Shown here: positions 1 through 14,398 of the stretch, in pieces
How positions within the stretch are numbered: position 1 is the stretch's first letter
Layout: every line of letters starts with the position of its first letter
From: Chloroflexota bacterium
Lineage (GTDB): Bacteria > Chloroflexota > Dehalococcoidia > DSTF01 > JACRBR01
DNA length: 64,000 nt
Direction: 5' to 3'
NCBI GenBank assembly: GCA_037444005.1
Contig: JBBING010000003.1
Coordinates: 15,006-79,005, forward strand
Position numbers and translations under genes: made by a program
The notes under the pieces: model-generated
What the model was told of the DNA's origin: nothing
The model's input: the letters and a program-made list of their open reading frames with translations, nothing else
Database searches by the model: none

Positions 1-1
1 G

Positions 2-607
2 GCGCAGATCCTCGCGCGGATCCACCGCATCCCGTACGAACGATGGGGGCTCGAAGGCCTCCCCTCTTCTCCTCTGGACCGCTCGCCGGCCGAGGGCGAA
101 CTGGACCGCTATGAGCAGGTCTACCGGGCGATCGCCCTCGAGCCGCATCCGGCGTTCGAGCTGGCGTTTCGTTGGCTGCGGCATCGCCTGCCGAGAGGGG
201 GCGAGCGCGCGCTCGTGCACGGTGACTATCGCATCGGCAACGTCATCTTCGGACCCGAGGGCGTGCGCGCCGTGCTCGACTGGGAGCTGGCGCACATCGG
301 CGACCCTATGGAAGACCTCGGATGGATCTGCGTGCGGTCGTGGCGGTTCGGCGGTCCGTTGCCGGTCGGCGGCATTGGCGAGCGTGAGGCATTCTGGCGC
401 GCGTACGAGGCGGCGGGCGGTTACCCCGTCGACCCCGAGCGCGTCCGCTTCTGGGAGCTCTTCGGCAACCTGCGGTGGGGCATCATTTGCATCTCGCAGG
501 CGCGGACGCATCTCGACGGACGCAGTCCGAGCGTGGAGCTGGCGAGCATCGGGCGTCGCATCTCCGAGACGGAGTGGGAGCTGTTGAATCTGATGGAGGC
601 GGGCTGA
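2..607 (+). CDS. Phosphotransferase (aminoglycoside/choline-kinase APH family), 5'-truncated at window edge
   Basis: Frame-2 ORF runs from the window edge to the TGA at 605-607. It has the HGDYRIGNVIF (Brenner HGD) and DWE motifs typical of the APH/ChoK kinase fold. Confidence 0.8.
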   Translation, partial: AQILARIHRIPYERWGLEGLPSSPLDRSPAEGELDRYEQVYRAIALEPHPAFELAFRWLRHRLPRGGERALVHGDYRIGNVIFGPEGVRAVLDWELAHIGDPMEDLGWICVRSWRFGGPLPVGGIGEREAFWRAYEAAGGYPVDPERVRFWELFGNLRWGIICISQARTHLDGRSPSVELASIGRRISETEWELLNLMEAG

Positions 608-999
608 TGCAGGACCGTCCAACCGCCGTCGAACTACTGAAGGCGGTCGAACGCTTCCTGGACGACGAGATCGTGCCGAACACGCAGGGGACCCGTCAGT
701 TCCACGCGCGCGTCGCGGCCAACGTGATGCGTATCCTCGCGCGGGAGTGGGAGCAGGAGGAGGAGCAGCTCGACGCCGAATGGGCCGGCCTCGATGAGCT
801 GCTGGGAGCGGAGCCGCGTCCACCCTCGCGCCGGTCGCTGCGCGACGCCATCGCGCGGCGCACCGCCATCCTGTGCGAGCGCATCCGCGCGGGCGAAGCG
901 GACGAAGGCCCCTTTCGCGAACAGGTGCTCGCCCATGTGCGCAGGACGGTGCGGGACAAGCTCCTGGTGAACAACCCCGGCTGGCTCGAACAGCCCTGA
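607..999 (+). CDS. Hypothetical protein, translationally coupled to upstream kinase
   Basis: The ATG at 607 overlaps the upstream TGA (ATGA). 130-aa ORF MQDRPTAVELLKAVERFLDDEIVP... with no recognisable catalytic motif. Confidence 0.5.
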   Translation: MQDRPTAVELLKAVERFLDDEIVPNTQGTRQFHARVAANVMRILAREWEQEEEQLDAEWAGLDELLGAEPRPPSRRSLRDAIARRTAILCERIRAGEADEGPFREQVLAHVRRTVRDKLLVNNPGWLEQP

Positions 1000-1005
1000 T
1001 CGGAC

Positions 1006-2301
1006 TCAGAGCGAGCGGATCCGCCGCGAACCGAGGCCGGCGAACCATGCGGCGACGATGGCGGCGCCCGCCATCGTCGCGATGGCGTGCGGCGTGCCGA
1101 TGACCTCGGCGAGCGAGCCCATCGCCAGGCTCCCGAACGGATTGAGCCCTTGCACCATCGTGAAGAGCGAGAGGACGCGGCTGCGGTACTCGTCGTCGAC
1201 GTAGAGCTGGAGCAGCGTCTGGTTGAACGTATTGAAGACGATGAGGTTCATGCCGCCCAGCACCAGCAGTCCGAACGACAGCGGCACGGTGCGAGAGAAC
1301 GAGAAGGCGAGGATCATGCTCATGTAGAGCATGAGGGCGGCGCCCATGATGCGGCCCTTGCGGCGCACATCCGAAAAGCGCGCCACGACGAGCGTCATGG
1401 CAATGGAGCCGACGCCGACGCCCGTCTGGAGGAACCCGAAGCCCCGAGGCCCGAGGCCGAGGTAGTCGGCTGCCATCGAGGGCATGAGCTGGAGGTACGG
1501 GTACACCATCAGCGTCGGCACCGCCTGGAGCAGCACGATGCGCGAAAGCACGGGGTGGCGGCGCAAGTACGACACGCCGAGGCGCACGCTGCGAAACACC
1601 GGTTCGCCCGCCGGACGCTCCGTCGACAGCAGGCGGAGCTGCAGGAGCGTCAGAGTCGCGCTGGCGAAGAACAGCGACTCGGCGAAGAACGACGACTGCA
1701 CGCCGAAGTATCCGATGACCGCGCCGCTCACATTGGGTGCGACCACGCGGGACATGTTGTTCGCGCCCGCGTTGAGGGCAATGGCGTTGGTCAGGTGCTC
1801 AGGCCCCACGGCGCTGTAAACGAGATGCTGACGCACAGGGTTGTACACGCTGCTGGCGAGCCCGCCGACGAACGCCGTGACGTAGAGCTGCCAGACTTCG
1901 ATGACGCCCGCGCTGACCAGCAGCCCCACTGCGAGCGCATTCAGGCCGTTCACGGCCGTCGCCAGCGCGGCGAGCTTCTTGCGGTCCACGCGCTCGGCGA
2001 CGGCACCGATGAAGGGCGACGTGAACAGGATGCAGAATCCCCGAATGAACTGGACTAGGCCGAGCTGAAACGGCGAGCCGGTCACTTCGTGCACGAGCCA
2101 GCCCTGTCCGATCTGCTCCATCCACATTGCGAAGCTGCTGGCGACGGTACCGGAGAACAGGAGGCGGAAATTGGGATTGGCGAGAGAACTGAACGCGCCA
2201 CCTCGCGGGCGAAGCGCAGGGGGCAGCGTCAGCTCGTCCGTCGACGCCTGCGGGGAGGATGTGTGAGCGGAAGACCGGGCCATGGGCGATGCGAAGCCCA
2301 T
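1006..2301 (-). CDS. MFS transporter (EntS/macrolide-efflux-like family)
   Basis: 431-aa ORF with about 12 hydrophobic helices, an N-terminal NPNFRLLFSG motif and a GAVAERVDRKKL loop 2-3 motif. Confidence 0.85.
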   Translation of the reverse strand: MGFASPMARSSAHTSSPQASTDELTLPPALRPRGGAFSSLANPNFRLLFSGTVASSFAMWMEQIGQGWLVHEVTGSPFQLGLVQFIRGFCILFTSPFIGAVAERVDRKKLAALATAVNGLNALAVGLLVSAGVIEVWQLYVTAFVGGLASSVYNPVRQHLVYSAVGPEHLTNAIALNAGANNMSRVVAPNVSGAVIGYFGVQSSFFAESLFFASATLTLLQLRLLSTERPAGEPVFRSVRLGVSYLRRHPVLSRIVLLQAVPTLMVYPYLQLMPSMAADYLGLGPRGFGFLQTGVGVGSIAMTLVVARFSDVRRKGRIMGAALMLYMSMILAFSFSRTVPLSFGLLVLGGMNLIVFNTFNQTLLQLYVDDEYRSRVLSLFTMVQGLNPFGSLAMGSLAEVIGTPHAIATMAGAAIVAAWFAGLGSRRIRSL

Positions 2302-2339
2302 GGTACTCGTTCCCTTAACGTAAACGGAAGGTCAGGACG

Positions 2340-3116
2340 TCACACCCGGGTGGCGTACACGAGCACGCGATAGCTGTAGTCGCGGCCCGACCATACGCCG
2401 CCGCACGTGATCAGCGTCACCGAGTCGACGCCCGTGGCCCGAAGGTACGGCGATGCGTCCTCGTACGGGGAGATGCGATAGATCTGCTGCACGGCGTACA
2501 CCAGCGGGCCGGTCGGCGTGTTCACGATGATCTGGTCGCCGGGGACCAGCGTCTCGATGTAGCCGAAGACGACCTTGCCTATCCGGACGTAGTCGACGTG
2601 GCCGGCGAAGACGGCGTTCCCGCCCTCACCCGGAAAGCCGCCGAGGCCGGGGTGGTTCGGGAAGTCGTACCACACCACATCCCATGGCCCGGAGGGGTTG
2701 GGCATCACGCCGCTGCGGGGCACGGCCCGGGACGACAGCGCGGCGTGTACACCTAGCTTCGGGATGGAGAGGCTGTACCCGGCGATGGAGCGGGCGGTGG
2801 TGACTCCCGGATCGTACGAACCGGAGCTGGAGTATGAGCCCCCGCCTGACGACGTGGTGGCCCCTTGTGGCGGAGGCGGAGGCGCTGGCGTCGGCGTGGG
2901 AGGAACCGGCGTCGGGGTCGGCGACGGGTACGCGAGGTCGCTCGCTGGATAGCCCGAGGCGAACCTGCTCGACGACGCGAACGGGCGCTCCGGCTCGGCG
3001 CCGCCCCGGTTCAGCGTGAACAGCGCGGCGCCCGCGGCGACGGCGACGAGCAGCCCGAGCACAGCGAGGGCCAGCCGGCCCCGGCCCGCGCTGTCGATGA
3101 TGCGTCGAATGGACAT
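2340..3116 (-). CDS. Sortase family protein (class E/F-like) with Pro/Thr-rich linker
   Basis: The C-terminal TLITCGG motif is the sortase active-site Cys, preceded by a His-containing beta-barrel region (AGHVDY). N-terminal TM anchor (LALAVLGLLVAVAAGAALF) followed by a PTPTPVPPTPTPAPPPPP linker. Start taken at MSIRRII. Confidence 0.7.
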   Translation of the reverse strand: MSIRRIIDSAGRGRLALAVLGLLVAVAAGAALFTLNRGGAEPERPFASSSRFASGYPASDLAYPSPTPTPVPPTPTPAPPPPPQGATTSSGGGSYSSSGSYDPGVTTARSIAGYSLSIPKLGVHAALSSRAVPRSGVMPNPSGPWDVVWYDFPNHPGLGGFPGEGGNAVFAGHVDYVRIGKVVFGYIETLVPGDQIIVNTPTGPLVYAVQQIYRISPYEDASPYLRATGVDSVTLITCGGVWSGRDYSYRVLVYATRV

Positions 3117-3225
3117 CGCCTCCTCCCCCGCTGAACTATCGGCTCCCGCGACTGCGATGTTCAGATGTTCAGGAGTATGCCACAAACGGGGACGCTCGTC
3201 GCCTCGTCCCGTGAACGAATCGCCC

Positions 3226-3648
3226 TTACGTCTGGAGGCGGGCGCCGCGAAGTCGGCCCATCAGGGAAACGGCGAGCCCAGCGGCGAGGCCAGTCGGCGC
3301 GCCGAGGAAGACCGCATGCGCGAAGACGAGCGCCGCCGCCCGCGCCGCGGGAGAGTCGAACGACTCGAAGAAGTCGAAGCGTTCGCCGCGCACGGCGTGC
3401 AGCACGACGCTCGCCGCCGCTGAGGTCGCCCACATGAGCGTGCCGAATGCGAGCGCGGCGATAACGGGAACCGCGGGCCGCCGAGCGACCGGAGCGCCGC
3501 GAAGCCACAGGAGGGTCGCCACGGCTGTGGCCACGCCCGCGACCGGCGGCTGGACGAACGGCCAGCGGCCGACGAATTCGGCGGAGAGGGCGAGGCCGAG
3601 AGCGGACGCGAGGGTCAGGGCGAGGGCGAACGCCTGGGTGCGGCCCAT
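3226..3648 (-). CDS. Hypothetical polytopic membrane protein (about 4 TM)
   Basis: 141-aa ORF starting 5 nt after the radical-SAM stop. Hydrophobic helices MGRTQAFALALTLASALGLAL..., no known motif. Confidence 0.5.
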   Translation of the reverse strand: MGRTQAFALALTLASALGLALSAEFVGRWPFVQPPVAGVATAVATLLWLRGAPVARRPAVPVIAALAFGTLMWATSAAASVVLHAVRGERFDFFESFDSPAARAAALVFAHAVFLGAPTGLAAGLAVSLMGRLRGARLQT

Positions 3649-3652
3649 CGCC

Positions 3653-4948
3653 TCAGCGGGCGGGGGCCTGCGCTTCGAAGAGCGCGATGGCTTCGTCGCT
3701 GGTGCGGTACGGGTCGGGCGCGCCGACGCCCGCTTCGCGGGCCGCCGGAGAGACGTAGACGCAGTAGGGTTCGCTCTCGAGGTAGTCGCCGGTGACGCCG
3801 AAGGCGCGCGCGCGCGAGCCGCCGCAGACGTCACGGAAGTCACAGAGGCCGCACTTGCCCTTCAGCTTCGTGTAGTCGCGGAGCTCGCGGAAGAGCGGAG
3901 AGTTGCGATAGATGTCGACGAAGCTCTGGGTGCGGACGTTTCCGGCCGGGATCTGGAGGAAGCCCGAAGGGCAGACGTCGCCGATGTGGCTGATGAACGC
4001 GAAGCCGTTGCCGTCGTTGACGCCCTTCATGGTCGACTGGCCCAGGCCGTCCGCGAAGCTGTAGCCGGCGCCGGTCAGGAACATTGAGCCGCCGGGGCCT
4101 GTCGGCGGTCCGCTCGCCTCGCCGCGGCGGGCGGCCTCCGCCGCCTCCTGGCGCCGTCGCTGGATGACCACCCGACGGTAATGCTGCGCCGCCGTGGAGC
4201 GCACGTCGAACGGCGCCACCTTCGAGAGGTCGTACATCCAATTGAAGACCTGCTCGTGCTCCTCGGGCGAGATCATGTCCTCGTGCGATCCGCGGCCCGT
4301 CGGCACCAGGAAGAAGAAATTGAGCATCACCGCCTTCCGCTCGGCGGCGATTTCGGCGATGCGGTCGAGCTCGTGCAGGTTGTGGCGGCTGACCGTCGTG
4401 CCGATCTGCAGCGACATGCCCAGGTCGGCCAGCATATCCATGATTTCGAGCGTCCGCTTGAAGGACCCAGGCGTCTTGCGGAAGGCGTCATGGCTCTCCG
4501 CCGTGGCGCCGTCGAGCGAAATATGCGTCCGGGTCACACCGGCGTCACGCGCCTTCTTCAGCCGCTCGCGCGTCACCAGCGCCGTCGCGGAGGGCGACAT
4601 CGCGACGCGGAGGCCCGACTGCGTCGCGTACGAGATCAGGTCGAAGAGGTCCGGCCGCATCATCGGGTCGCCGCCGGTGATGATGAGAATCGGGCCGCCG
4701 ATCTCGACGAGCTGGTCGATGAGGCGGAAGCCTTCCTCGGTGGTCAGCTCGCGGGGGTCGCGGCGCGGGATCGCTTCGGCCCTGCAGTGGACGCAGCGGA
4801 GCGCGCAGGCGCGAGTGGTCTCCCACGCGACGGTGAAGGGCGTCTTGTCGAAGTCGACGTCGGCGACCGGCGGTTTCGGGCGCGTCCCTCTGTCCGCGAT
4901 CTCCGAATGTCGCATCGTGGAGTCGACGATGGCGGGCCGGTCAGCCAT
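3653..4948 (-). CDS. Radical SAM / SPASM-domain protein (PqqE/AhbD-like maturase family)
   Basis: CxxxCxxC cluster (TTRACALRCVHC), GGDP glycine-rich SAM motif, and a C-terminal SPASM Cys cluster (GDVCPSGF...CGLCDFRDVCGGSRARAF). Start chosen at MADRPAIV (ATG 4948); an alternative ATG lies at 4915. Confidence 0.85.
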   Translation of the reverse strand: MADRPAIVDSTMRHSEIADRGTRPKPPVADVDFDKTPFTVAWETTRACALRCVHCRAEAIPRRDPRELTTEEGFRLIDQLVEIGGPILIITGGDPMMRPDLFDLISYATQSGLRVAMSPSATALVTRERLKKARDAGVTRTHISLDGATAESHDAFRKTPGSFKRTLEIMDMLADLGMSLQIGTTVSRHNLHELDRIAEIAAERKAVMLNFFFLVPTGRGSHEDMISPEEHEQVFNWMYDLSKVAPFDVRSTAAQHYRRVVIQRRRQEAAEAARRGEASGPPTGPGGSMFLTGAGYSFADGLGQSTMKGVNDGNGFAFISHIGDVCPSGFLQIPAGNVRTQSFVDIYRNSPLFRELRDYTKLKGKCGLCDFRDVCGGSRARAFGVTGDYLESEPYCVYVSPAAREAGVGAPDPYRTSDEAIALFEAQAPAR

Positions 4949-5038
4949 GACACGATCATTATCCGGGAGCCCCGATCCCCGGACAAGGGACGGTGGATAC
5001 AGCCGTCGCCGAGCTTTTCCGTGACTTCGGGTGAGGCT

Positions 5039-5602
5039 ATGCTGGCGACGATGGTGTCGCCACCCGTGAGCCGGGCGCCCGCGTCCCGTACGCCCGAGGC
5101 GGAATCGGATCCCGAATACGAGGCGTTGCTCGCGCTGGCGCGGGTCTGCGCGCGGCGCGGCCCCGACGCGCATCCGCTCGACAAGCTGCAGGATGTCGTC
5201 GACCTGGCGAGAGAGCTGACCGGGGCCCGCTACGCCGCGCTGGCCGTCACGGACGAACGAAACCGCACCGAGGGCTTCGTGGTGTCCGGCCTGGACTCCG
5301 CGACGCTCCGCCGCTTGAAGACGCCTCCACAGGGGCATGGCCCCCTCGGTGTCTTGCGGGCGGACGGCCGTCCGGTGCGATACGACAACCTGGATGCGGT
5401 GCGGAACGCGTTCGGCTTCCCGCCGAAGCACCCCGTGATGCGGACGCTCATGGGAACGCCCATCTGGGTACGCGGGACGGTCCGCGGGAGCCTGTACGTC
5501 ACCGATCGCGACGGCGGGAAGCCGTTCCGAGATCGGGACGAGGCGACGCTACTGACGCTCGCGCGACACGCCGCGAACATCATCGAGCGGGACTGGTACT
5601 GA
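5039..5602 (+). CDS. GAF domain-containing protein (stand-alone)
   Basis: 187-aa ORF with an RBS GGTGAGG before the ATG. GAF-like core (LDKLQDVVDLARELTGARYAALAV ... GSLYVTDR). Divergent from the radical SAM gene. Confidence 0.7.
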   Translation: MLATMVSPPVSRAPASRTPEAESDPEYEALLALARVCARRGPDAHPLDKLQDVVDLARELTGARYAALAVTDERNRTEGFVVSGLDSATLRRLKTPPQGHGPLGVLRADGRPVRYDNLDAVRNAFGFPPKHPVMRTLMGTPIWVRGTVRGSLYVTDRDGGKPFRDRDEATLLTLARHAANIIERDWY

Positions 5603-5605
5603 GCG

Positions 5606-6538
5606 GTGCGCCTGCTGACGTACGCTTCGCCGCGAGGTCCCCGTCTGGGGGCGGTGCTCGATGGCGTTGTGTTCGACCTCGCGGACGAGGCGAACGCGCT
5701 CGGCCTGCCCCCGCTTCCCTCTGACATGCTCGCGTTCATCGAGGCAGGGCTTGGTGCCCTCAGCGCCGCGCGAGCAACCCTCGACGCCGTGCGTGAGGCC
5801 GGCAGGACCGGCGTGCCACTCGAACGCGTACGTCTGCTCGCGCCCATCCCGCGCCCGCGCAAGAACGTGATGTGCGTCGGGTTAAACTACGCTGAGCACG
5901 CGCGGGAGTCGCAAAGCGTGAGCGGACCCGGCCTACCCGAGGTTCCGGTGTTCTTCACGAAGGCGCCGACCTGCGTCATCGGGCCCGACGAACCGATCCC
6001 GTATCCCGAGGGCGTGAGCGAGGCCGTGGACTGGGAGGCGGAGCTAGTCGCGGTCATCGGCCGACGGGTCCGCGACGTGGCGGCGTCGGCTGCGCTCGAG
6101 TGCGTGTTCGGGTACATGGCCGGGAACGACGTGACGGCCCGCGATTTGCAGAGAGCGCACCAGCAGTGGTTCAAGGGCAAGAGCCTCGACGGCTTCTATC
6201 CCCTCGGGCCGTGGATCGTGACCGCAGACGAAATCCCGGACCCGCAATCGCTCCAAATCCGCCTGCGGGTGGACGGCGTGACGAAGCAGGATGCAAGCAC
6301 AGCGGACATGATCACGCCCGTCGCAGGGCTCATCGCGTCGCTGTCGAGAGGGATGACGCTGGAGCCGGGCGACCTTTTGATGACGGGCACGCCGGCGGGT
6401 GTAGGCGTCGGAAGGACGCCGCCGGAGTTCCTGCGGCTGGGAAATGTCGTCGAGGTCGAGATCGAACGCATCGGCGTGTTGCGGAACCGGGTGGAGCTGA
6501 GGCGGGGTCCGGCGCTTTCGAGCGCGTCGGGCGCTTGA
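5606..6538 (+). CDS. Fumarylacetoacetate hydrolase (FAH) family protein
   Basis: GTG start 4 nt after the GAF stop. FAH-fold signatures: KNVMCVGLNYAEHA, DWEAELVAVIG, GDLLMTGTPAGVG. Confidence 0.88.
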   Translation: MRLLTYASPRGPRLGAVLDGVVFDLADEANALGLPPLPSDMLAFIEAGLGALSAARATLDAVREAGRTGVPLERVRLLAPIPRPRKNVMCVGLNYAEHARESQSVSGPGLPEVPVFFTKAPTCVIGPDEPIPYPEGVSEAVDWEAELVAVIGRRVRDVAASAALECVFGYMAGNDVTARDLQRAHQQWFKGKSLDGFYPLGPWIVTADEIPDPQSLQIRLRVDGVTKQDASTADMITPVAGLIASLSRGMTLEPGDLLMTGTPAGVGVGRTPPEFLRLGNVVEVEIERIGVLRNRVELRRGPALSSASGA

Positions 6539-6539
6539 G

Positions 6540-6545
6540 TACAAT
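6540..6545 (+). promoter_or_regulatory. Putative -10 element (TACAAT within GTACAATGGCCGC) upstream of galU
   Basis: TACAAT sits 33 nt upstream of the galU GTG. The same 13-mer recurs at the nfi start. Confidence 0.35.
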
Positions 6546-6578
6546 GGCCGCGCATCGGCCCCTCGGCAGGAGGCGCGC

Positions 6579-7445
6579 GTGAAGGTCCGAAAGGCTGTGG
6601 TGCTCGCCGCCGGGTACGGCACCCGTCTGCTGCCGGCGACCAAGGCGCAACCCAAGGAAGCGCTCCCCCTCGTCGACAAGCCCATCATCCAGTACACGGT
6701 CGAGGAAGCGGTCGAATCGGGCATCACGCACGTCATCATCGTGACCGCGATGGGTAAGCGGGCGATCGAGGATCATTTCGACCGCTCGCTCGAGCTGGAG
6801 ATGGCGCTCCGCGAGAAGGGGGATCTCGAGCGTCTCGCCGAGGTCCAGCGTATCTCCGAGCTGGCCAACATCGTGTACGTGCGCCAGAAGCAGCAGCTTG
6901 GCATCGGCCACGCCGTGCTGCAGACGCGAGACCTCGTGGGCAGCGAGCCCTTCGTCCTCTTCTTCCCCGATGACGTCATCGTGGCCGAGAGGCCGGTGGC
7001 GCTCCAGATGATCGGCGTGTTCAAGGAGTTCGACGGGCCAGTGCTGGGCGTGCAACGGGTGCCCAAAGAGGAGATCTCGCAGTACGGCGTCGTCGAAGGC
7101 GAGCCGGTACGTGAAGGAGTGTGGCGCGTCCGGTCGCTCGTCGAAAAGCCCGACCCCGATGAAGCGCCCTCCGACCTCGGTATCGTCGGCCGCTACGTCC
7201 TGACGCCCGACGTCTTCGACATCATCGAGCGCACCCCTCCCGGAAAAAACGGCGAAATCCAGATCACCGACGCGTTGAACACGCTAGCCGGCCGCCGGCC
7301 GATGTTCGCGTACCAGTTCGAGGGCAAGCGGTACGACACCGGGCGCCCGCTCGGCTTCCTTCAGGCGTCGGTGGAGCTCGCCCTCCGGCGCCCCGACATC
7401 GGGCCGAAGTTTCGCGAATACCTCCGGAACCTGGAGCTCGACTGA
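6579..7445 (+). CDS. galU: UTP--glucose-1-phosphate uridylyltransferase
   Basis: N-terminal KAVVLAAGYGTRLLPATKAQPKE (G-x-G-T-R nucleotidyltransferase motif) with VDKPIIQY and an AGGAGG RBS. The rest of the sequence reads as GalU throughout. Confidence 0.93.
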   Translation: MKVRKAVVLAAGYGTRLLPATKAQPKEALPLVDKPIIQYTVEEAVESGITHVIIVTAMGKRAIEDHFDRSLELEMALREKGDLERLAEVQRISELANIVYVRQKQQLGIGHAVLQTRDLVGSEPFVLFFPDDVIVAERPVALQMIGVFKEFDGPVLGVQRVPKEEISQYGVVEGEPVREGVWRVRSLVEKPDPDEAPSDLGIVGRYVLTPDVFDIIERTPPGKNGEIQITDALNTLAGRRPMFAYQFEGKRYDTGRPLGFLQASVELALRRPDIGPKFREYLRNLELD

Positions 7446-7447
7446 CC

Positions 7448-8752
7448 ATGCGCATCCTGTCCCTGGGGTTCCCGATGCCGGGACCGCGCGTGGACAACTA
7501 CAACTTCCTCAGCGCGCCCACGCTCTCCGACTACGAAGCCGTCGTCGTCGAGCCGGGCAGCTTCTCGCGCGTGGTCGAGGAAGTCGTCGCGGGCGAGGGC
7601 GAGCATCGCACGTTCTTCGATGAGCCCGTCGTGAACGGGACCACGGGACCGGGAGTGGTCGGCCTGGCCGACCTGCTACGGGATCGTCAGCGGCAGACGG
7701 CTCGATTGCTCGCCGGCGGCGGGACCGCGGTCGTGTTCGCGTACCCCGACGTCGTCCACACGAACGTGGCCGGCTTCACCGGATGCGACCGCTACTTCTG
7801 GCTCCCGGCGCCTGCGGGCCTCGCGTGGCGGGAACCCCACCTCGTACGGGCTGCGGGGGATCGCCTGGGCGACGTCGACCGCGACCACCCGTTCGCCGAA
7901 GCGGTCGACGCTATGGCGAAATACGTCGGCTTCCGGGCGGAGTTCACGGGTGAGGCGGTCAAGGCCGGCTCGGGAAAGGTCTTCTCCCGGAGTCCAGGCG
8001 GGAGCGCCATTGGTGTGGAGTTCCCCGTAGCGGGCGGCGTCGTGGTGTTCCTTCCGGCGCTGCGGAAGGCGCCCTCGGCCGACGACCGGTATCGCATTTC
8101 GAACGCGTTGCAGGACGCCATCGCGCGGACGGCCGGCCGGTTGGACGAGGCCGCGCCCGCATGGCTCGGCGACTACCCGCTTCCCGGACTCGCCGACGCG
8201 GAGGCCGAGCTGGCGGAGGCGCGCGTGCGCCTGGAAGAGGCGGCCGCCGAGGTCCGCGAGGCGCAAGCCCGCAAGACCGCGCTCGACCGACGCCGGCGCA
8301 TCCTGTGGCTGGGATCCGGCCCCGCTCTCGTGGACGCGCTCAAGGATGCCCTGAGCGTGCTCGGCTTCACCGTCGCCGGAGGCTTCGGTGAGCCGTTGAC
8401 CGCGACCATCGACGATCAGCGCGTCGCGGTCGAAGCGGCGGCCAGCGATGGCGAGGTCGGGCTGGACCCGCATTACCGGCTGCGCGCCCGGATCGAAGCT
8501 GCTATCGCAGAAGGGAAAGCAGTCCCGCGAGGGGTCGTCTTCGTGAACGGCTACCGGCAGCGGCCGCCCGCCGACCGGCCGACGCAGTACGCGCAGGCGC
8601 TTCGCGTGGCGGCCGAATCCATGCGATACTGCGTCGCGACGACGGACCAGCTCTATCAGGCGGTGCGGAGCGCGATGGAAGGCGAGCAGGGAACCGTCGC
8701 GCGGTTCCGGGAGTTGCTCCTCTCGACGGACGGAGCGCTGCGTCTCGATTGA
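7448..8752 (+). CDS. Conserved hypothetical protein (434 aa; N-domain, coiled-coil, C-domain)
   Basis: The ATG lies 3 nt after the galU stop. It has a central Ala/Glu/Arg-rich predicted coiled coil (EAELAEARVRLEEAAAEVREAQARKTALDRRRR) and no catalytic motif I recognise. Confidence 0.55.
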   Translation: MRILSLGFPMPGPRVDNYNFLSAPTLSDYEAVVVEPGSFSRVVEEVVAGEGEHRTFFDEPVVNGTTGPGVVGLADLLRDRQRQTARLLAGGGTAVVFAYPDVVHTNVAGFTGCDRYFWLPAPAGLAWREPHLVRAAGDRLGDVDRDHPFAEAVDAMAKYVGFRAEFTGEAVKAGSGKVFSRSPGGSAIGVEFPVAGGVVVFLPALRKAPSADDRYRISNALQDAIARTAGRLDEAAPAWLGDYPLPGLADAEAELAEARVRLEEAAAEVREAQARKTALDRRRRILWLGSGPALVDALKDALSVLGFTVAGGFGEPLTATIDDQRVAVEAAASDGEVGLDPHYRLRARIEAAIAEGKAVPRGVVFVNGYRQRPPADRPTQYAQALRVAAESMRYCVATTDQLYQAVRSAMEGEQGTVARFRELLLSTDGALRLD

Positions 8753-8765
8753 CAGGGAGGTGTGC

Positions 8766-9569
8766 ATGACGGCGGCTTCGGGTCCTGACTGGGCGCTGAT
8801 TCTGGGCGCATCCAGCGGGTTCGGCGGCGCGACGAGCCTCGAACTCGCGCGCGCCGGCCTGAACATTTTCGGCGTGCATCTCGACATGCGGGCCACGCTT
8901 CCGAACGCGGAACGGATCCGCGACGAGATTCTGGGCATGGGCCGGCAGGCCGTGTTCTTCAACGTGAACGCCGCTGACGCCGAGAAGCGACGGATGGTCG
9001 TCGACGCTATCCGCGAGCGATTCCAGCAGGACGGCGGGGGGCGCGTGCGCGTGCTCCTGCACTCGTTGGCGTTCGGTACGCTGAACCCGTTCATCGCTGA
9101 GTCGCCCAAGGATGCCATCACCCAGAAGCAAATGGAGATGACGCTGGACGTGATGGCGCACAGCCTCGTGTACTGGACGCAGGACCTGGTGGCGGCGGGC
9201 CTCCTGACGCGCGGCAGCCGCATCTTCGCGATGACGAGTTCGGGGTCGACCCGCGTCATCAAGTCCTACGGCGCTGTGTCCGCCGCCAAGGCGGCGCTCG
9301 AGTCGCACATCCGGCAGCTCGCGTTCGAGCTCGCGCCCATGGGCATCACGGCGAACGCGATTCGCGCGGGGGTGACGGACACGCCGGCGTTGCGCCGCAT
9401 TCCGGGAGGGGTCGAACTGCTCGAGCGCGCGCAGCGGCTCAACCCGAGCGGGCGCGCCACGCGGCCCGAAGACGTCGCCAAGGCGATCGCGGCGCTCATC
9501 GACGAGCGTTTGTACTGGATGACCGGGAACGTCATCGGTGTCGACGGCGGCGAGGACATCACCGGCTGA
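8766..9569 (+). CDS. Enoyl-ACP reductase-like SDR (FabI/FabL family)
   Basis: Rossmann GASSGFGGA motif and the Y-x6-K catalytic dyad (SYGAVSAAK) typical of FabI-type enoyl reductases. RBS AGGGAGG sits 6 nt before the ATG. Confidence 0.8.
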   Translation: MTAASGPDWALILGASSGFGGATSLELARAGLNIFGVHLDMRATLPNAERIRDEILGMGRQAVFFNVNAADAEKRRMVVDAIRERFQQDGGGRVRVLLHSLAFGTLNPFIAESPKDAITQKQMEMTLDVMAHSLVYWTQDLVAAGLLTRGSRIFAMTSSGSTRVIKSYGAVSAAKAALESHIRQLAFELAPMGITANAIRAGVTDTPALRRIPGGVELLERAQRLNPSGRATRPEDVAKAIAALIDERLYWMTGNVIGVDGGEDITG

Positions 9570-9590
9570 TCGCCGGCGCTCTCCCCGCAC

Positions 9591-10415
9591 ATGACCGCGA
9601 CGGTGCCCCCCGAGACGACCCCCGCGACGCGCGTGTTCGTCGCCCACGGCGCGCAGGTCTTCGCGCGTCTCTGGGACGGCGCCGAGCCAACCGTGCTGAT
9701 CCTCCACGGGTGGGGTAGCAAGGGCGAACGCTGGCTTCGCGTTGCCCAGGGGCTCGCCGAGGCAGGCTGGGCCGTCTGTCTCCCTGACCTGCCCGGCTTC
9801 GGCGAGAGCCCGCCACCGCCCGCGCCGTGGGCTGTGGAGGACTACGCGCACGCCGTCGACGAGATGACGCGCGAGCTCGGAGCCCCAACGACCTTCGTGG
9901 TCGCGCATTCGTTCGGCTCGAGGATCGCCATTCGCCTCGCTGCGACCGGACGGGCGGGCATCCGCGCTATGCTGCTCACCGGCGCGGCAGGGCTCCGGCC
10001 GCGGATCACGTGGCGACGGCGGCTACTGAGCCGGGCCGCGCGGGCCGGCGCCGCCGTCTTCGCGCTGCCCCCTCTGCGGCCAGCCGCCGACCTCGCGCGG
10101 CGGGCGCTGTATCGCGCGATCGGCTCCATGGACTACTACCTGGCCCGCGGGGTGATGCGGGACACGTTCCGGCTCGTGGTCGAAGAGGACCTGGCGAACG
10201 ACATGCGGGCGGTCAATGTGCCGGTGAAGCTGCTCTGGGGCGCCGACGACCGCGCGACGCCCCTCAGCGACGGCCGCCGTATGGCCGGCCTCATCCCCGG
10301 AGCGGAGCTCGAGGTCGTGGAGGGTGTGGGCCACGCCCTGCCCCACGAGCGCCCCGAGCTTCTCGTGTCTCGTGCGCGGGCGTTCTTCGAGACGGCGCGG
10401 GGAGCGGCCCGATGA
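9591..10415 (+). CDS. Alpha/beta hydrolase fold protein
   Basis: HGWGS oxyanion region, nucleophile elbow AHSFGS, and a C-terminal GVGHALPHE His motif. The stop overlaps the next start (ATGA). Confidence 0.85.
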   Translation: MTATVPPETTPATRVFVAHGAQVFARLWDGAEPTVLILHGWGSKGERWLRVAQGLAEAGWAVCLPDLPGFGESPPPPAPWAVEDYAHAVDEMTRELGAPTTFVVAHSFGSRIAIRLAATGRAGIRAMLLTGAAGLRPRITWRRRLLSRAARAGAAVFALPPLRPAADLARRALYRAIGSMDYYLARGVMRDTFRLVVEEDLANDMRAVNVPVKLLWGADDRATPLSDGRRMAGLIPGAELEVVEGVGHALPHERPELLVSRARAFFETARGAAR

Positions 10416-12049
10416 TTGCGCTCGCTCTCGCGGCGGCCGCGCTCGCCGCTCTGCGAACGGTGCGCGCGGCGCTGCTGTACATCAGCCTGTGGCAGGTTCG
10501 CGAGTACCGATGGGATCGCTTCCGCGCGTTCCTCGGCACGCGGGCGGCCCGGACGTTGGCGCTTCATCCGTTCCCGCTCGCGCGACTCGCGCTTCTCGCG
10601 GCGCTCGTCGCCATCGCTCGCTGGACGCAACCGGGGGAGGCGGCGCTGGGCGCGATCGTGGCGCTCTACGCGCTCGAGGTGGGGCTCGGCGCGAGGGAAG
10701 CAGTGGCACGGACGATCCGGCGTCCCGCGCGGACCTTCAGGGCGCTCGCCCTGACGGCGGCGGTCGTCTTCGCGGGTTGGGCCGCCATCGCGGCCGCGGT
10801 CGTGGTGGCGATGACCGCCGATCTCGATGACCACGTTCGCTGGTTTACCCTCGCCCTGGCGTTGCTCGCCATCGACCGCCTGCTGCCGTTTGCGGCGGGC
10901 GCGCTCGTGCTGGCTGCGCGGCTGCCCAATCAGGCGCTGGTGGCCCTGGATGTGCAGCGGGCGCGACGCGCGATGCGCGGCAGCCACGCGGTCGTCGTCG
11001 GCATCACCGGGAGCTACGGGAAGACGAGCACGAAGACGTTTCTCGCCACCATCCTCTCGCAGCGCCGCCGGGTCTGGGCGACCCCGGGCAGCGTCAATAC
11101 GCTCGTCGGCGTGGCCCGCCTCATCGCCCGGTCGGGCGCCGACTACGACGTCATGATCGTGGAGATGGGCGCCTATCGTGAGGGCGAAATCCGGGCCATC
11201 TGCGAGCTCGTGCGGCCTAGAATTGGCGTGCTCACCGCGGTCGCGGAGCAGCACCTTGCGCTCTTCGGGAGCATCGAGCGGACGCTCGAAGCGAAGTTCG
11301 AGCTCATCGAGGCGCTGCCGCGAGACGGGCTCGCGGTGCTGAACGGCAACGACGCGCGCATCAGGGCGCGGAGCGAGGGCGTGGCCGTACCCCGCCGGTT
11401 CTATTCTGCGACCGGCCCCTCGGACGTGTGGGCGAAGGATGTGACGGTCGGCCGGGATGCCCTCGAATTCACGGTCGTGTATGGTCAGGAAGAGGCGCGA
11501 TTCCGCTGCGGGGTGCTGGGCAGGCAGAACGTCGAGCCGCTGCTCGCCGCCACGGCGGTCGCGCTCGAGCTCGGCATGACGCTTGCGGAGGTTCGCGACG
11601 CCGCGTCGGCGGTGAAGCCGGTCCGCCGCACGCTGGAGCCAGGCCAGCTTCCCGGCGGCGCGACGTGTATCGACGACACGTTCAGCGCGAGCCGCGCGGC
11701 GATCCTGGCGGCGCTGGACTTCCTGGCGGAGGCGCCCGCGGAGCGCCGATTTATCGTCATCTCGGGGATCCCCGAGCTCGCCGAGCTGACCCGGCCCGTT
11801 CACGAGGAGATCGGCGTCAGGATGAGCCAGGTTTGCGACCGCATGATCTGCGTCAACGGCGACTACGCTCCCTTCTACGAGCGCGCGATGGACGAAGCGG
11901 CCCGAAACGGACGGTTCTTCTTCGAGCCGGACCCGGCGAAGGCGGCCGCGCTTCTCGCCGACCTCCGCGCGGGGGACATCGTGCTGTTCGAGGGACGGGG
12001 AGCCGAACGGGTGCTGGACCGGCTGCGCGTGCGCGCGGAGGCGACGTGA
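10412..12049 (+). CDS. Mur ligase family protein (MurF-like) with N-terminal multi-TM domain
   Basis: About 190 N-terminal hydrophobic residues (some 5-6 TM) followed by the Mur ligase P-loop VVGITGSYGKTSTK and central/C-terminal Mur ligase domains (NGNDARI, ISGIPELAEL). Confidence 0.85.
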   Translation: MIALALAAAALAALRTVRAALLYISLWQVREYRWDRFRAFLGTRAARTLALHPFPLARLALLAALVAIARWTQPGEAALGAIVALYALEVGLGAREAVARTIRRPARTFRALALTAAVVFAGWAAIAAAVVVAMTADLDDHVRWFTLALALLAIDRLLPFAAGALVLAARLPNQALVALDVQRARRAMRGSHAVVVGITGSYGKTSTKTFLATILSQRRRVWATPGSVNTLVGVARLIARSGADYDVMIVEMGAYREGEIRAICELVRPRIGVLTAVAEQHLALFGSIERTLEAKFELIEALPRDGLAVLNGNDARIRARSEGVAVPRRFYSATGPSDVWAKDVTVGRDALEFTVVYGQEEARFRCGVLGRQNVEPLLAATAVALELGMTLAEVRDAASAVKPVRRTLEPGQLPGGATCIDDTFSASRAAILAALDFLAEAPAERRFIVISGIPELAELTRPVHEEIGVRMSQVCDRMICVNGDYAPFYERAMDEAARNGRFFFEPDPAKAAALLADLRAGDIVLFEGRGAERVLDRLRVRAEAT

Positions 12050-13296
12050 CCCGCCCCATCGCTATCTCGATCTCTCCGAACACCGACGCCTCCGATGTGC
12101 GGGCCGCAGCGCGCGAGCTCGCGCGGCCGTGGACGTGGACGGACGAACGGGATGTGCGGGCGTTGGAGGCGCGGTTCGCGGCGCGGTTCGGGGGACGGGC
12201 GTTCGCGTTCGAGAGCGCCCGGTCGGGGCTGTACACGCTCCTGGCGGCGATGGGCCTGTCGTCCGAGGATGAAACGCTGCTGCAGGCTTTCACCTGTGTG
12301 GCCGTGCCGAACGCGGTGCTGTGGGCCGGCGGACGCCCTGTCTACGTGGACATGGACCCGCGGACGTACAACATCGACCCCGCGGACCTCGAACGAAAGC
12401 TGACGCCCCGCAGCCGGGCCGTGATCGTGCAGCACACGTTCGGCATTCCGTGCGACCTGGACGCGGTGATGGAGATCACCGGTCGCCGGCGACTGCTCCT
12501 CATCGAGGACTGCGCGCACGCGCTCGGGGGCTCGCACGACGGGCGCGAGCTGGGCACATTCGGAGACGCGGCGGTGTTCAGCTTTGGCCGGGACAAGGTC
12601 ATCTCGTCGGTGTTCGGCGGCATGCTGGTGGTTAGGGAGCCCGACATCGCGGCGAGGGTCGCGGCGCTATACGAGAGCATCCCGTTGCCCTCGCGGCGAT
12701 GGACCGCCCAGCAACTGCTGCATCCCGTTGCGACCAACATCGCCGTACTGCCGCTGTACTTCCGGGCGAGGATCGGCGTCGTGCTGCTGGTAGGCTTCCA
12801 GCGTGCGGGGCTGTTGTCCCGGGCCGTCGCCCCGGAGGAGTTGCGCGGGGGCCGGCCTCGTGGCTGGGTTCGACGCCTTCCGGTGCCGCTGGCGCGCCTC
12901 GCGGCCAGACAGCTCGACCGGCTCGAGGCTCTCAATGCGCATCGGCGAGCCATGGCCGACGTCTACCGCGCCGAGCTGGACGGGATGGTGCTTCCCGCGC
13001 TTCACGACCCGGGCGACGTGCCCGTGTACCTCCGCTTCCCTGTCGCGACGTGGGAGCGGGACGCCATCATCGCGCGGGCGCGCCAGAAGCGCATCCTTCT
13101 GGACAAATGGTACGACGCGCCGGTAGCGCCCGCGGGCGTCGACCTCGCGGCCGTGCGGTATGTTCCGGGGTCGTGTCCCAACGTCGAGGCCGCGTGCGCG
13201 ACCACCCTCAATCTGCCCACGCACCCGCGGATCGACGCCGGCGACGCCCGCGCCATCGCGCGTCTCGTCCGCGAACGGGTCGAGGTGGCGGCATGA
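12046..13296 (+). CDS. DegT/DnrJ/EryC1/StrS family PLP-dependent aminotransferase
   Basis: GTG overlapping the upstream TGA. PLP-lysine context SFGRDKVISSVFGG and the IEDCAHALG motif. Confidence 0.85.
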   Translation: MTRPIAISISPNTDASDVRAAARELARPWTWTDERDVRALEARFAARFGGRAFAFESARSGLYTLLAAMGLSSEDETLLQAFTCVAVPNAVLWAGGRPVYVDMDPRTYNIDPADLERKLTPRSRAVIVQHTFGIPCDLDAVMEITGRRRLLLIEDCAHALGGSHDGRELGTFGDAAVFSFGRDKVISSVFGGMLVVREPDIAARVAALYESIPLPSRRWTAQQLLHPVATNIAVLPLYFRARIGVVLLVGFQRAGLLSRAVAPEELRGGRPRGWVRRLPVPLARLAARQLDRLEALNAHRRAMADVYRAELDGMVLPALHDPGDVPVYLRFPVATWERDAIIARARQKRILLDKWYDAPVAPAGVDLAAVRYVPGSCPNVEAACATTLNLPTHPRIDAGDARAIARLVRERVEVAA

Positions 13297-14306
13297 TCGA
13301 CGTGCGGACGGTCGACGACCGGGAACGCTGGGACGCTTTTGTGACGGCGCAGCCCGGCCACACCTTCCTGCAATCGTCCAACTGGGGTGAGCTGAACGCC
13401 TCCCTGGGGCATCCGGCGCACTTTCTCGGGCTGTGGGAGGGGGGCGACCTCATCGGCGCCGCGCTCACGTTGGAGATGCGGTCGCGCCGGGGACGCTTTC
13501 TCTTTGTGCCGCACGGCCCTCTCATGCCGTGGTCCGAGCGCACGTTCGGCGCGCTCCTCGAGGCGCTGCGAGCGCTGGCGAGAGAGCGGCGGTGCGCATG
13601 GATTCGCATCAGTCCGGTGATCTCGCGCGACTCGGCGTTCGGGGCGCTGTTCCGGCAGCACGGCTTCCGTGGCGCGCCCATTCACGTGCACGCCGAGAGC
13701 ACATGGACGCTGGACGTGCGGCGCTCGGACGAGGAGCTGCTCGCTGGCATGCGGCAGACGATGCGGAACTCGATTCGCCGGGCGATCAAGGACGGGGTCG
13801 AAGTGCTGCGAGGGTGCGACCCGGGCCTGCGGGCGGCGTTCTCGAAGCTGTACTACGACACTGTCGAGCGGCAGCAGTTCACCCCGTACTCCGCGGCGTT
13901 TCTCGAGCGTGAGGTCGACTGCTTCGCCCGGGACAACCGTATCCAGGTCTACGTCGCGATGTACCAGGGGGAGGCGCTGGCGGGGGCGATCGTGGTCTTC
14001 TACGGGAATTCGGGCTTCTACCATCACGGGGCCACGGCGAACATCCATCGCAAAGTGCCCGCCTCGTACCTGGTGCAGTGGGAGGCCATCCGCGAGGCGC
14101 GGGAGCGCGGGTGCGCGTACTACAACTTCTGGGGCATCGCGCCGGACGACCGGCCCGACCACCCGTGGGTCGGGCTCACGCGGTTCAAGCAGGGATTCGG
14201 GGGCTTTCGGACGGACTACCTCCACGCGCAGGACCTTCCGCTCAGCCCCGCGTACTGGCTGAACTGGGTGGTGGAGACGGCGCGGCGCATCCGGCGGCGG
14301 TACTGA
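13293..14306 (+). CDS. FemAB-family peptidoglycan interpeptide-bridge peptidyltransferase (GNAT fold)
   Basis: The ATG overlaps the upstream TGA. Sequence reads as FemX/FemAB family (FLQSSNWGEL..., ...YHHGATANIHRKVPASYLVQWEAIREARERGCAYYNFWGI). Confidence 0.85.
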   Translation: MIDVRTVDDRERWDAFVTAQPGHTFLQSSNWGELNASLGHPAHFLGLWEGGDLIGAALTLEMRSRRGRFLFVPHGPLMPWSERTFGALLEALRALARERRCAWIRISPVISRDSAFGALFRQHGFRGAPIHVHAESTWTLDVRRSDEELLAGMRQTMRNSIRRAIKDGVEVLRGCDPGLRAAFSKLYYDTVERQQFTPYSAAFLEREVDCFARDNRIQVYVAMYQGEALAGAIVVFYGNSGFYHHGATANIHRKVPASYLVQWEAIREARERGCAYYNFWGIAPDDRPDHPWVGLTRFKQGFGGFRTDYLHAQDLPLSPAYWLNWVVETARRIRRRY

Positions 14307-14335
14307 ACGGCCGCATCGGGGGCTGTGGGCACGGC

Positions 14336-14366
14336 TTTGCCGGGGCGTTCGGGGCGCGTATACAAT
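14336..14366 (+). promoter_or_regulatory. Putative sigma70-type promoter for yebC (TTGCCG-17-TATACAAT)
   Basis: -35 TTGCCG at 14336-14341, a 17-nt spacer, then TATACAAT at 14359-14366. The GTG at 14399 follows after a GGGGAGG RBS. Confidence 0.4.
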
Positions 14367-14398
14367 GGCGCCGAAGCTAGGGGAGGACACGACGTCTC

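Follow-up and report, generated by a model that had tools for sequence, protein, structure and literature searches.

Coproheme is decarboxylated by ChdC (HemQ) in the coproporphyrin-dependent pathway; in the siroheme-dependent (AHB) pathway the radical SAM haem b synthase is AhbD, characterised in Methanosarcina barkeri and Desulfovibrio. AhbD-like radical SAM enzymes have already been proposed as anaerobic coproheme decarboxylases where other AHB genes are missing (PMC10114771, PMC13564367). Reviews still call the anaerobic coproheme decarboxylase step of coproporphyrin-pathway organisms unconfirmed.

Here we analyse a radical SAM/SPASM gene and its surroundings in a stretch of Chloroflexota DNA of 64 kb (the window). 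Our results make it likely that the encoded protein is a Dehalococcoidia AhbD-type haem b synthase of family TIGR04053, that the small protein with four transmembrane helices (4-TM) encoded directly downstream is a membrane accessory, and that the nearby sortase, MFS, GAF and FAH genes are neighbours by descent.

Layout of the locus

An earlier note, made from this sequence alone, had listed the genes, their order and their strands, and all of these genes are present as it gave them. Together with a promoter-like site, they are:

1006-2301, minus strand: MFS transporter of the MFS_3 (EntS-like) type (PF05977, 141.8 bits; PF07690, 110.4 bits)
2340-3116, minus strand: sortase, 258 aa, with an N-terminal TM anchor and a Pro/Thr-rich linker (PF04203, 63.8 bits)
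3226-3648, minus strand: 4-TM protein, 140 aa (no match in Pfam or NCBIfam)
3653-4948, minus strand: radical SAM protein, 431 aa (PF04055 and PF13186, SPASM)
4958-4986, minus strand: promoter-like site TTGTCC-17 nt-GATAAT (consensus search and conservation)
5039-5602, plus strand: stand-alone GAF protein, 187 aa (homologue of DevS/DosT GAF-A)
5606-6538, plus strand: FAH-family hydrolase (PF01557, 263 bits)

The gaps in the co-directional run from the radical SAM gene to the MFS gene are 4, 109 and 38 nt. The first of these had been given as 5 nt; it is the 4-nt stretch GGCG, which separates the stop codon of the radical SAM gene from the ATG of the 4-TM gene. The divergent region (4949-5038) does measure 90 bp, as claimed, and holds no peptide ORF. 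On the other strand, the FAH gene starts 3 nt past the GAF stop codon. Apart from the radical SAM gene, no haem gene was found in the window. An Rfam search of the window returned just two tRNAs, far from the locus, and no riboswitch at the locus itself, and a repeat search gave only short two-copy matches, as expected by chance.

The promoter-like site is the sole consensus match in positions 900-6700. From its end to the first ATG of the radical SAM ORF there are 9 nt, and the radical SAM mRNA may be leaderless or short-leadered. Five members of the lineage have identical hexamers at the same spacing, despite a dS of about 0.7-0.9. The true start of the protein may be the conserved internal Met12, with its ATG at 4915.

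The radical SAM protein is a TIGR04053 member nearest to AhbD

A profile search against the SPASM subfamilies, which the earlier note had suggested, placed TIGR04053 best and AhbD next. The protein scores 468.4 bits against NCBIfam TIGR04053, above the curated cut-off of 395, and is matched over the full length of the model (residues 31-399 against profile positions 1-365 of 366). TIGR04053 is a widespread radical SAM/SPASM family without an assigned function; a literature search under that name gave nothing, and neither did a search for AhbD together with Dehalococcoidia. The nearest characterised family is AhbD (TIGR04545), with 372.7 bits over two stretches. Since this score does not reach the equivalog cut-off of 500, we place the protein in a sister family of AhbD rather than with canonical AhbD. 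Other tetrapyrrole models follow at 250 (NirJ2), 186 (NirJ1) and 178 bits (AhbC), and the models of PqqE (113.9 bits, cut-off 381) and MftC (162.1 bits, cut-off 265) do not reach their thresholds. Six homologues from other gene contexts match the same profile, with AhbD scores of 298-382 bits; those from ahbAB-type and hem-type clusters, too, match TIGR04053 over its full length and above its cut-off.

The cysteines agree with this placement. Cys48, Cys52 and Cys55 form a CX3CX2C motif, with Cys48 kept in 32 of the 33 aligned homologues, and Cys366, Cys369, Cys375 and Cys396, invariant or nearly so in the same alignment, form a CX2CX5CX20C motif. The latter agrees with the CX2CX5CX20-21C auxiliary motif reported for NirJ, AhbC and AhbD (PMC10114771). 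The C-terminal cysteines number five, Cys326 not being invariant, and the protein lacks the seven-cysteine SPASM set for two auxiliary clusters. The gene is under strong purifying selection (dN/dS of 0.03-0.06 within the window lineage), and its product retains 52-83% identity between Chloroflexota classes.

Haem genes beside related radical SAM genes

We compared the locus with 41 more distant related loci from other genomes that carry TIGR04053 homologues. Haem biosynthesis genes adjoin the homologue in 25 of these (ahbA/B in 9, hem genes in 16), and the 16 loci with no haem neighbour are mostly from Planctomycetota. Close Dehalococcoidia relatives, whose enzymes are 68-86% identical to that of the window, encode AhbA (121-129 bits) and AhbB (180 bits, cut-off 125) directly downstream; one MAG has two copies of the radical SAM gene (L013 and L014), with ahbA after each. 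In Anaerolineales the enzyme gene lies between hemB and hemE, in clusters with hemA, hemC, hemD, hemB, hemE and hemY. A neighbour-joining tree nests the window lineage within the ahbAB-adjacent clade.

From the family membership, the cysteine motifs, the purifying selection and the haem-gene neighbourhoods of the orthologues we infer that the radical SAM protein is most likely an oxygen-independent coproheme decarboxylase, that is, a haem b synthase. The mechanism of AhbD is established, and its steps, transferred to the window protein, would be as follows. The [4Fe-4S] cluster on CX3CX2C would reductively cleave S-adenosylmethionine, and the 5'-deoxyadenosyl radical would abstract hydrogen at the ring A and ring B propionates of Fe-coproporphyrin III (coproheme). 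Oxidative decarboxylation would turn these propionates into vinyl groups, yielding haem b without oxygen, with the electron being removed via an auxiliary cluster on CX2CX5CX20C.

The earlier note had preferred a cofactor role (PqqE/AhbD-like) to that of a peptide maturase, and this preference is borne out by the TIGR04053 membership, by AhbD as the nearest family and by the orthologues in haem clusters. A function can be inferred for TIGR04053 from these haem contexts. Its presence beside ahbAB and within hemA-C-D-B/hemE/hemY clusters also gives genomic-context support to the proposal of AhbD-like anaerobic coproheme decarboxylases.

A candidate membrane accessory of the haem pathway

The 4-TM ORF is a real gene, since its dN/dS is 0.20-0.44, although it evolves much faster than the radical SAM enzyme. 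An AlphaFold2 model of the protein is a four-helix bundle (pLDDT 93.4), for which a fold search gave just generic four-helix TM bundle matches. The family is rare, with 36 representative clusters among 1.84 billion. A first metagenome scan with the 4-TM alignment as query gave nothing, and a second, with P0009 as query, gave the loci L055 and L056.

In five other lineages (L055-L060), 4-TM homologues head tight operons of the order 4TM-TM2-ahbA-ahbB, where TM2 is a 151-aa protein with no match in Pfam or NCBIfam. At the 4-TM junctions, which lie after the ahbD-like gene in the window lineage and before ahbAB in the five others, stop and start codons overlap or are at most 4 nt apart, and the genes on the other flank differ (SerS, F420 ligase or an HTH regulator). 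Glu24, His84 and His111 are invariant in the family and Asp92 is nearly so; an LGxPTG motif is common to the main subfamily, and a divergent subfamily is solitary.

Because its family elsewhere heads 4TM-TM2-ahbA-ahbB operons, the 4-TM protein most likely assists the siroheme-dependent haem pathway at the membrane; it may handle haem or coproheme or serve as an electron outlet. Its gene is co-transcribed with the radical SAM gene, and probably translationally coupled to it. The membrane protein had been read as a pointer to the cell envelope; its family points to haem biosynthesis and not to a secreted product. By prediction, Glu, His and Asp residues conserved in the family point to the outer side of the membrane.

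We tentatively suggest a more specific possibility, namely that in Dehalococcoidia 4-TM and TM2 together are a so far unrecognised part of the siroheme-dependent haem pathway, located in the membrane. They could be a unit for handling or exporting haem or coproheme, or an electron outlet for the radical SAM decarboxylation; Glu24, His84, His111, Asp92 and LGxPTG would be a putative binding site near the outer face, and the GAF protein could then respond to haem or gas as a partner specific to this lineage, its gene using the same conserved divergent promoter region. The literature that we searched describes no membrane component of the AHB pathway, and 4-TM and TM2 are testable candidates for one.

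It is conceivable, if somewhat doubtful, that the 4-TM protein is unrelated to haem, and that its place beside the ahbD-like gene or ahbAB is a relic from a single ancestor's gene order within one bacterial class. The informative contexts all come from 4TM-TM2-ahbAB lineages. Their contigs, of which one is named Dehalococcoidia, may all derive from related organisms, and they have the downstream TreT-TreT-GlgC-like genes in common, so that some of the synteny is inherited. The solitary distant subfamily, the generic fold matches and the fast evolution are in line with such a relic. However, the family adjoins two different haem gene sets, ahbD-like and ahbAB, and its close junctions are like those of translationally coupled operons, with differing flanks on the other side.

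A possible role at another step of tetrapyrrole metabolism

The radical SAM protein might instead act at another tetrapyrrole step, as an AhbC-like enzyme (didecarboxysiroheme to coproheme), as a NirJ-like enzyme, or in both the AhbC and the AhbD steps; we consider this improbable. In its favour, no separate ahbC lies beside ahbAB in the related loci, and where ahbA-ahbB follow the radical SAM gene, no radical SAM gene other than that of TIGR04053 was seen within about 8 kb. The matches to the NirJ2, NirJ1 and AhbC models and the paired copies in one MAG also fit such an activity. Yet AhbD reaches 373 bits, while no other characterised model exceeds 250, and no haem d1 genes were seen nearby. 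Moreover, the Anaerolineales cluster is of the coproporphyrin type (hemE, hemY); didecarboxysiroheme is no intermediate there, and therefore only the coproheme-to-haem step fits.

Neighbours by descent

The earlier note had seen in the neighbouring genes a hint of an envelope-directed product, which the comparison of loci does not support. The GAF/4-TM/sortase/MFS arrangement is limited to one narrow lineage with radical SAM proteins at least 91% identical (L001-L010), in which the surroundings are collinear over the full reach of every contig compared. The sortase and MFS neighbours are gone once enzyme identity is 86% or less, and none of the 41 more distant loci has the GAF, 4-TM, sortase or MFS gene beside the radical SAM gene. 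No sortase homologue occurs in these 41 loci, and an MFS gene adjoins the radical SAM gene in L001-L010 only. We conclude that sortase, MFS, GAF and FAH are neighbours by descent and not parts of a radical SAM system. The note had set its reading against an assignment to the AhbC/AhbD haem clade with neighbours not conserved in other genomes, which is essentially what we found: the neighbours are not conserved, though the AhbD score stays below its cut-off.

That the radical SAM/SPASM enzyme matures a distant peptide or protein, with the 4-TM protein, sortase and MFS transporter processing, anchoring or exporting the product, is very improbable: the four genes are closely spaced and co-directional, their arrangement is kept in all close relatives examined and a SPASM domain is typical of peptide maturases, but there is no precursor-like ORF in positions 1-10000 and no partner set conserved outside the narrow lineage, the C-terminal cysteines are five and not seven, peptide-maturase models score far below TIGR04053 and AhbD, and the enzyme, by its cross-class identity and low dN/dS, is unlike fast-evolving maturases. 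The precursor scan covered ORFs of 20-70 aa outside genes and Cys-rich ORFs in positions 1-10000 and found none intergenic, Cys/Gly-rich small ORFs included. A locus that could be taken for a new radical SAM system, making a natural product or acting at the envelope, most likely carries an ordinary gene for an oxygen-independent haem synthase whose surroundings are accidental.

The longest sortase ORF spans 2340-3185, and the ATG at 3116 is preceded by the Shine-Dalgarno sequence GGGGGAGGAGG; independent gene calls likewise give 258 aa. The catalytic residues are present: His (in VFAGHVDY), Cys (in TLITCGG, of the form TLxTC) and Arg (in YRVLVYA). The sortase had been called housekeeping-type, which is not established; no class is assignable, as even NCBIfam class model F, the best of them, reaches 60 bits where 166 are required. 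A search of the window for LPXTG-type substrates was negative; the sole C-terminally anchored protein there, a Peptidase_MA_2, is without the motif. The interval between the 4-TM gene and the sortase has no terminator-like site; a hairpin noticed there on visual inspection was rejected, being no more stable than folds of shuffled sequence (z = -0.37).

The GAF protein matches PDB entries 2y79, 2w3d and 2vzw at E = 1e-25 to 1e-29, and its sequence makes it a homologue of the haem-binding DevS/DosT GAF-A domain, with haem binding predicted. Its His131 corresponds to DevS His149, the proximal haem ligand, and its Tyr153 to the distal DevS Tyr171; both are invariant in 120 homologues. The protein has a GAF domain only and is not part of a sensor histidine kinase. 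The 120 homologues listed are all 151-205 aa long, and homologues occur in unrelated gene contexts. Adjacency of GAF and radical SAM genes is not conserved. The GAF and FAH genes, a GalU-like gene and further ones form an operon-like series, and in one related locus (L012) an FAH-GalU-hypothetical-SDR-hydrolase run stands beside the radical SAM gene, with GAF absent. Nothing evident ties the FAH hydrolase to the radical SAM gene.

Comparison with known systems

The GAF protein resembles the GAF-A domain of Mycobacterium tuberculosis DevS/DosT (2w3d, 2vzw) over about 130 aligned residues at E = 1e-29. It differs from DevS in having Ala and Thr at the positions of Glu87 and His89, and from both in standing alone, without a kinase or other output domain.

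Compared with AhbD (TIGR04545), the radical SAM protein matches nearly the whole profile and shares the CX3CX2C motif and the C-terminal auxiliary-cluster cysteines, and its orthologues adjoin ahbA-ahbB. In contrast to AhbD, it has an extra stretch of about 30 residues (268-300), which splits the AhbD match in two, and its gene in the window adjoins no other ahb gene.

If the radical SAM protein acts as proposed, it would carry out the same overall reaction as ChdC (HemQ), from coproheme to haem b. ChdC, however, is unrelated in fold and chemistry, being a chlorite-dismutase-like haem enzyme that depends on oxygen or peroxide, whereas the window protein is a radical SAM protein with predicted [4Fe-4S] clusters. 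The Anaerolineales TIGR04053 gene fills the slot in a hemE/hemY-type cluster that is expected for such an enzyme (PMC10114771).

Gene content of the radical SAM locus

All of the genes that an earlier, sequence-only note had named at this locus are present, in a Dehalococcoidia MAG whose window has a GC content of ~69% and is carried with identical sequence by GCA_964582925.1 and DATLZC010000058.1.

Genes of the radical SAM locus (window positions)
1006-2301, minus strand: MFS transporter
2340-3116, minus strand: sortase, 258 aa by independent gene calls, its ATG start preceded by a strong Shine-Dalgarno sequence
3226-3648, minus strand: four-helix membrane protein (4-TM), 140 aa
3653-4948, minus strand: radical SAM/SPASM protein (the enzyme), 431 aa
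5039-5602, plus strand: GAF protein, divergent from the radical SAM gene
5606-6538, plus strand: FAH-family hydrolase, starting 3 nt past the GAF gene

Only 4 nt separate the radical SAM stop codon from the 4-TM ATG. An ORF scan of positions 1-10000 found no candidate peptide ORF in the 90-bp divergent region, where the earlier note had likewise seen no precursor, or in the remaining intergenic stretches. Further along, between GalU-like and SDR genes, lies a gene (7448-8752) for a 434-aa conserved protein without a Pfam match, which is present in all lineage relatives and also in L012, a homologous locus from another genome (59% identity).

The radical SAM enzyme and its family

In an NCBIfam profile search the enzyme scored 468.4 bits against TIGR04053 (curated cut-off 395), and by this score it is a member of an already known AhbD-like radical SAM family. 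The second-best model was AhbD, the haem b synthase of the siroheme-dependent (AHB) pathway, at 372.7 bits and under its cut-off of 500; the NirJ2, NirJ1, AhbC, MftC, PqqE and peptide maturase models all scored lower than AhbD. The enzyme has eight cysteines. In an alignment of 33 homologues those of the radical SAM motif CX3CX2C (Cys48, Cys52 and Cys55) and of a CX2CX5CX20C motif (Cys366, Cys369, Cys375 and Cys396) are invariant or nearly so, and Cys326 is conserved in most. The dN/dS within the lineage is 0.03-0.06, indicating very strong constraint, and many metagenomic homologues are still 65-83% identical, a pattern that fits a housekeeping enzyme and not a peptide maturase.

Haem genes adjoin the enzyme gene in other genomes

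We fetched 42 homologous loci, one genome per species, tested all window genes against them, and identified the replacement neighbours by neighbour clustering and NCBIfam scans. The GAF, 4-TM, sortase and MFS genes adjoin the enzyme only in the narrow window lineage (L001-L010, enzyme at least 91% identical), where the region around the enzyme is collinear up to the end of each fetched contig; none of the 41 other loci carries any of the four. The envelope-directed product suggested in the earlier note does not survive the synteny comparison which that note had proposed: sortase, MFS transporter and 4-TM genes adjoin the enzyme only in that lineage.

Haem genes, by contrast with these four, adjoin the enzyme gene in 25 of the 41 loci. 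AhbA and then AhbB, the siroheme decarboxylase subunits, directly follow the enzyme in L011, L013-L018 and L048, eight loci whose enzymes are ~68-86% identical to that of the window, and also in L040; in these loci AhbA scores 121-129 bits, slightly below the cut-off of 140, and AhbB 180 bits against a cut-off of 125. In Anaerolineales (L022-L034, L044, L046 and L049; ~56% identity) the enzyme gene is flanked by hemB and hemE, and the clusters also hold hemA, hemC, hemD and hemY where the fetched contig extends far enough (hemC, hemE and the hemY-type oxidase were confirmed by NCBIfam). Enzymes from both the ahbAB and the hem contexts score above the cut-off for TIGR04053, with the AhbD model second. 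In a neighbour-joining tree the window lineage falls within the ahbAB-adjacent clade, with L012 as its sister; L012 has the FAH-GalU side of the locus in common with the window and lacks the GAF gene. No further haem genes were detected by NCBIfam scans within the 64-kb window itself. With TIGR04053 as its family, AhbD as the next-best model and orthologues beside haem genes, the lean of the earlier note towards a cofactor role proves right.

One MAG (MFD04408.bin.2.164) contains two radical SAM-ahbA loci, L013 and L014, with unlike upstream genes and enzymes 83% and 82% identical to that of the window. These could be true paralogues, possibly splitting AhbC-like and AhbD-like roles, or could reflect a mixed bin.

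The conversion of coproheme to haem b, which is the AhbD reaction, is the sole reaction common to the siroheme and coproporphyrin routes. This, together with a proposal made in reviews, is why we read the enzyme as AhbD-type: from its observed family membership and gene context we infer that it acts as a haem b synthase. The reviews propose an AhbD-like radical SAM enzyme as the candidate for the anaerobic conversion of coproheme to haem b where other AHB genes are absent (PMC10114771, PMC13564367, PMC10965808). The hemB-enzyme-hemE arrangement of Anaerolineales is context evidence that TIGR04053 provides the coproporphyrin pathway with its oxygen-independent coproheme decarboxylase.

Two membrane protein families linked to ahb genes

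The 4-TM protein has no matches in Pfam or NCBIfam. Its reading frame is intact in relatives 65-75% identical and its dN/dS is 0.20-0.44, establishing it as a real gene. AlphaFold2 predicts a confident four-helix bundle (pLDDT 93.4), for which a fold search returned generic four-helix transmembrane bundles. This is a rare family, with 36 clusters among 1.84 billion representatives in an exhaustive profile search, and all its members are short (52-214 aa). Among aligned homologues Glu24 (in an AEF motif), Trp73, His84 (H-x-x-R-G) and His111 are invariant and Asp92 nearly so; an LGxPTG motif is common to the main subfamily, and a divergent subfamily without it consists of solitary genes. The positive-inside rule predicts a cytoplasmic N-terminus, TM2-TM3 loop and C-terminus; with this topology Glu24, His84, Asp92 and His111 would lie at the outer side of the membrane or close to it.

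More distant 4-TM members occur in the order 4-TM, TM2, AhbA, AhbB (L055, L056, L057, L058/L059 and L060), with stop and start codons that overlap or nearly abut. Here TM2 denotes a conserved 151-aa membrane protein, always encoded between the 4-TM gene and ahbA, 57-68% identical across loci and without a match in Pfam or NCBIfam. It carries an invariant N-terminal PQLPL motif and a C-terminal LRLPTTE motif, and it is absent from the window.

TM2 genes (positions within each locus)
L055, 1591-2046
L056, about 511-972
L057, 6516-6971
L058, 6480-6935
L060, 450-905

In L057, L058 and L060 ahbB is followed by a pair of genes for TreT-like GT4 glycosyltransferases and one for a GlgC-like nucleotidyltransferase, as it is in radical SAM-ahbA-ahbB loci (L013, L017 and L018), which is probably inherited synteny. 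The 4-TM family therefore stands beside two distinct haem-pathway gene sets: in the window lineage it follows the ahbD-like gene, and in five other lineages it precedes ahbAB. A single ancestral order, ahbD-4TM-TM2-ahbA-ahbB, would, as a hypothesis, account for all three arrangements; no intact locus of this kind was found. A functional tie of 4-TM to haem biosynthesis or haem handling is likely but unproven. That the AHB haem pathway has a membrane component made up of 4-TM and TM2 is a more tentative idea, which we consider somewhat improbable. What is new here, modestly, is the link of these two membrane protein families, both without a name, to ahb genes.

The sortase and its surroundings

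All three catalytic residues of the sortase (His, Cys and Arg) are in place. The earlier note had called it housekeeping-type; we leave it without a class, since the best model (class F), at 60 bits, falls short of its cut-off of 166. No recognisable sortase substrate was found in the window. Its only C-terminally anchored protein is a 486-aa Peptidase_MA_2 protein (25594-27054), with a C-terminal hydrophobic anchor, a basic tail and no LPXTG-type motif, and nothing found in the window marks it as a sortase substrate. No terminator-like site was found between the 4-TM gene and the sortase, which may or may not be co-transcribed. No evidence of a link between the enzyme and either the sortase or the MFS transporter emerged from the window or the 41 loci compared. 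At ~10400-15000 (643-4537 of L001), Mur-ligase-like, DegT/DnrJ/EryC1 aminotransferase and FemAB-family genes stand in a row. They resemble a cluster for the modification of cell-wall peptides or sugars, and the sortase may have more to do with them than with the radical SAM gene.

The divergent region and the GAF protein

Within the well-conserved divergent region, a promoter-like TTGTCC-17 nt-GATAAT site ends 9 nt 5' of the first radical SAM ATG. It does not vary among five lineage members and suggests that the radical SAM mRNA is leaderless or has a short leader. On the GAF side (5005-5045), just 5' of the GAF start and Shine-Dalgarno sequence, GAAGTCACGG is invariant in five lineage members although synonymous sites are saturated, and may act as a regulatory site for both of the divergent genes.

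GAF homologues occur in unrelated contexts and L012 lacks the gene, so that its adjacency to a haem synthase here is suggestive at most. One homologue (L052) has a gene for a universal stress protein next to it, reminiscent of the DosR regulon. The window protein matches PDB 2y79, 2w3d and 2vzw (E = 1e-25 to 1e-29), and neither its proximal His (His131) nor its distal Tyr (Tyr153) varies among the 120 homologues listed, all of them 151-205 aa long and without other domains. The window GAF protein, a member of a family well conserved in Chloroflexota, probably binds haem; it is homologous to the haem-binding GAF-A domain of DevS/DosT, but differs from it in being a stand-alone protein.
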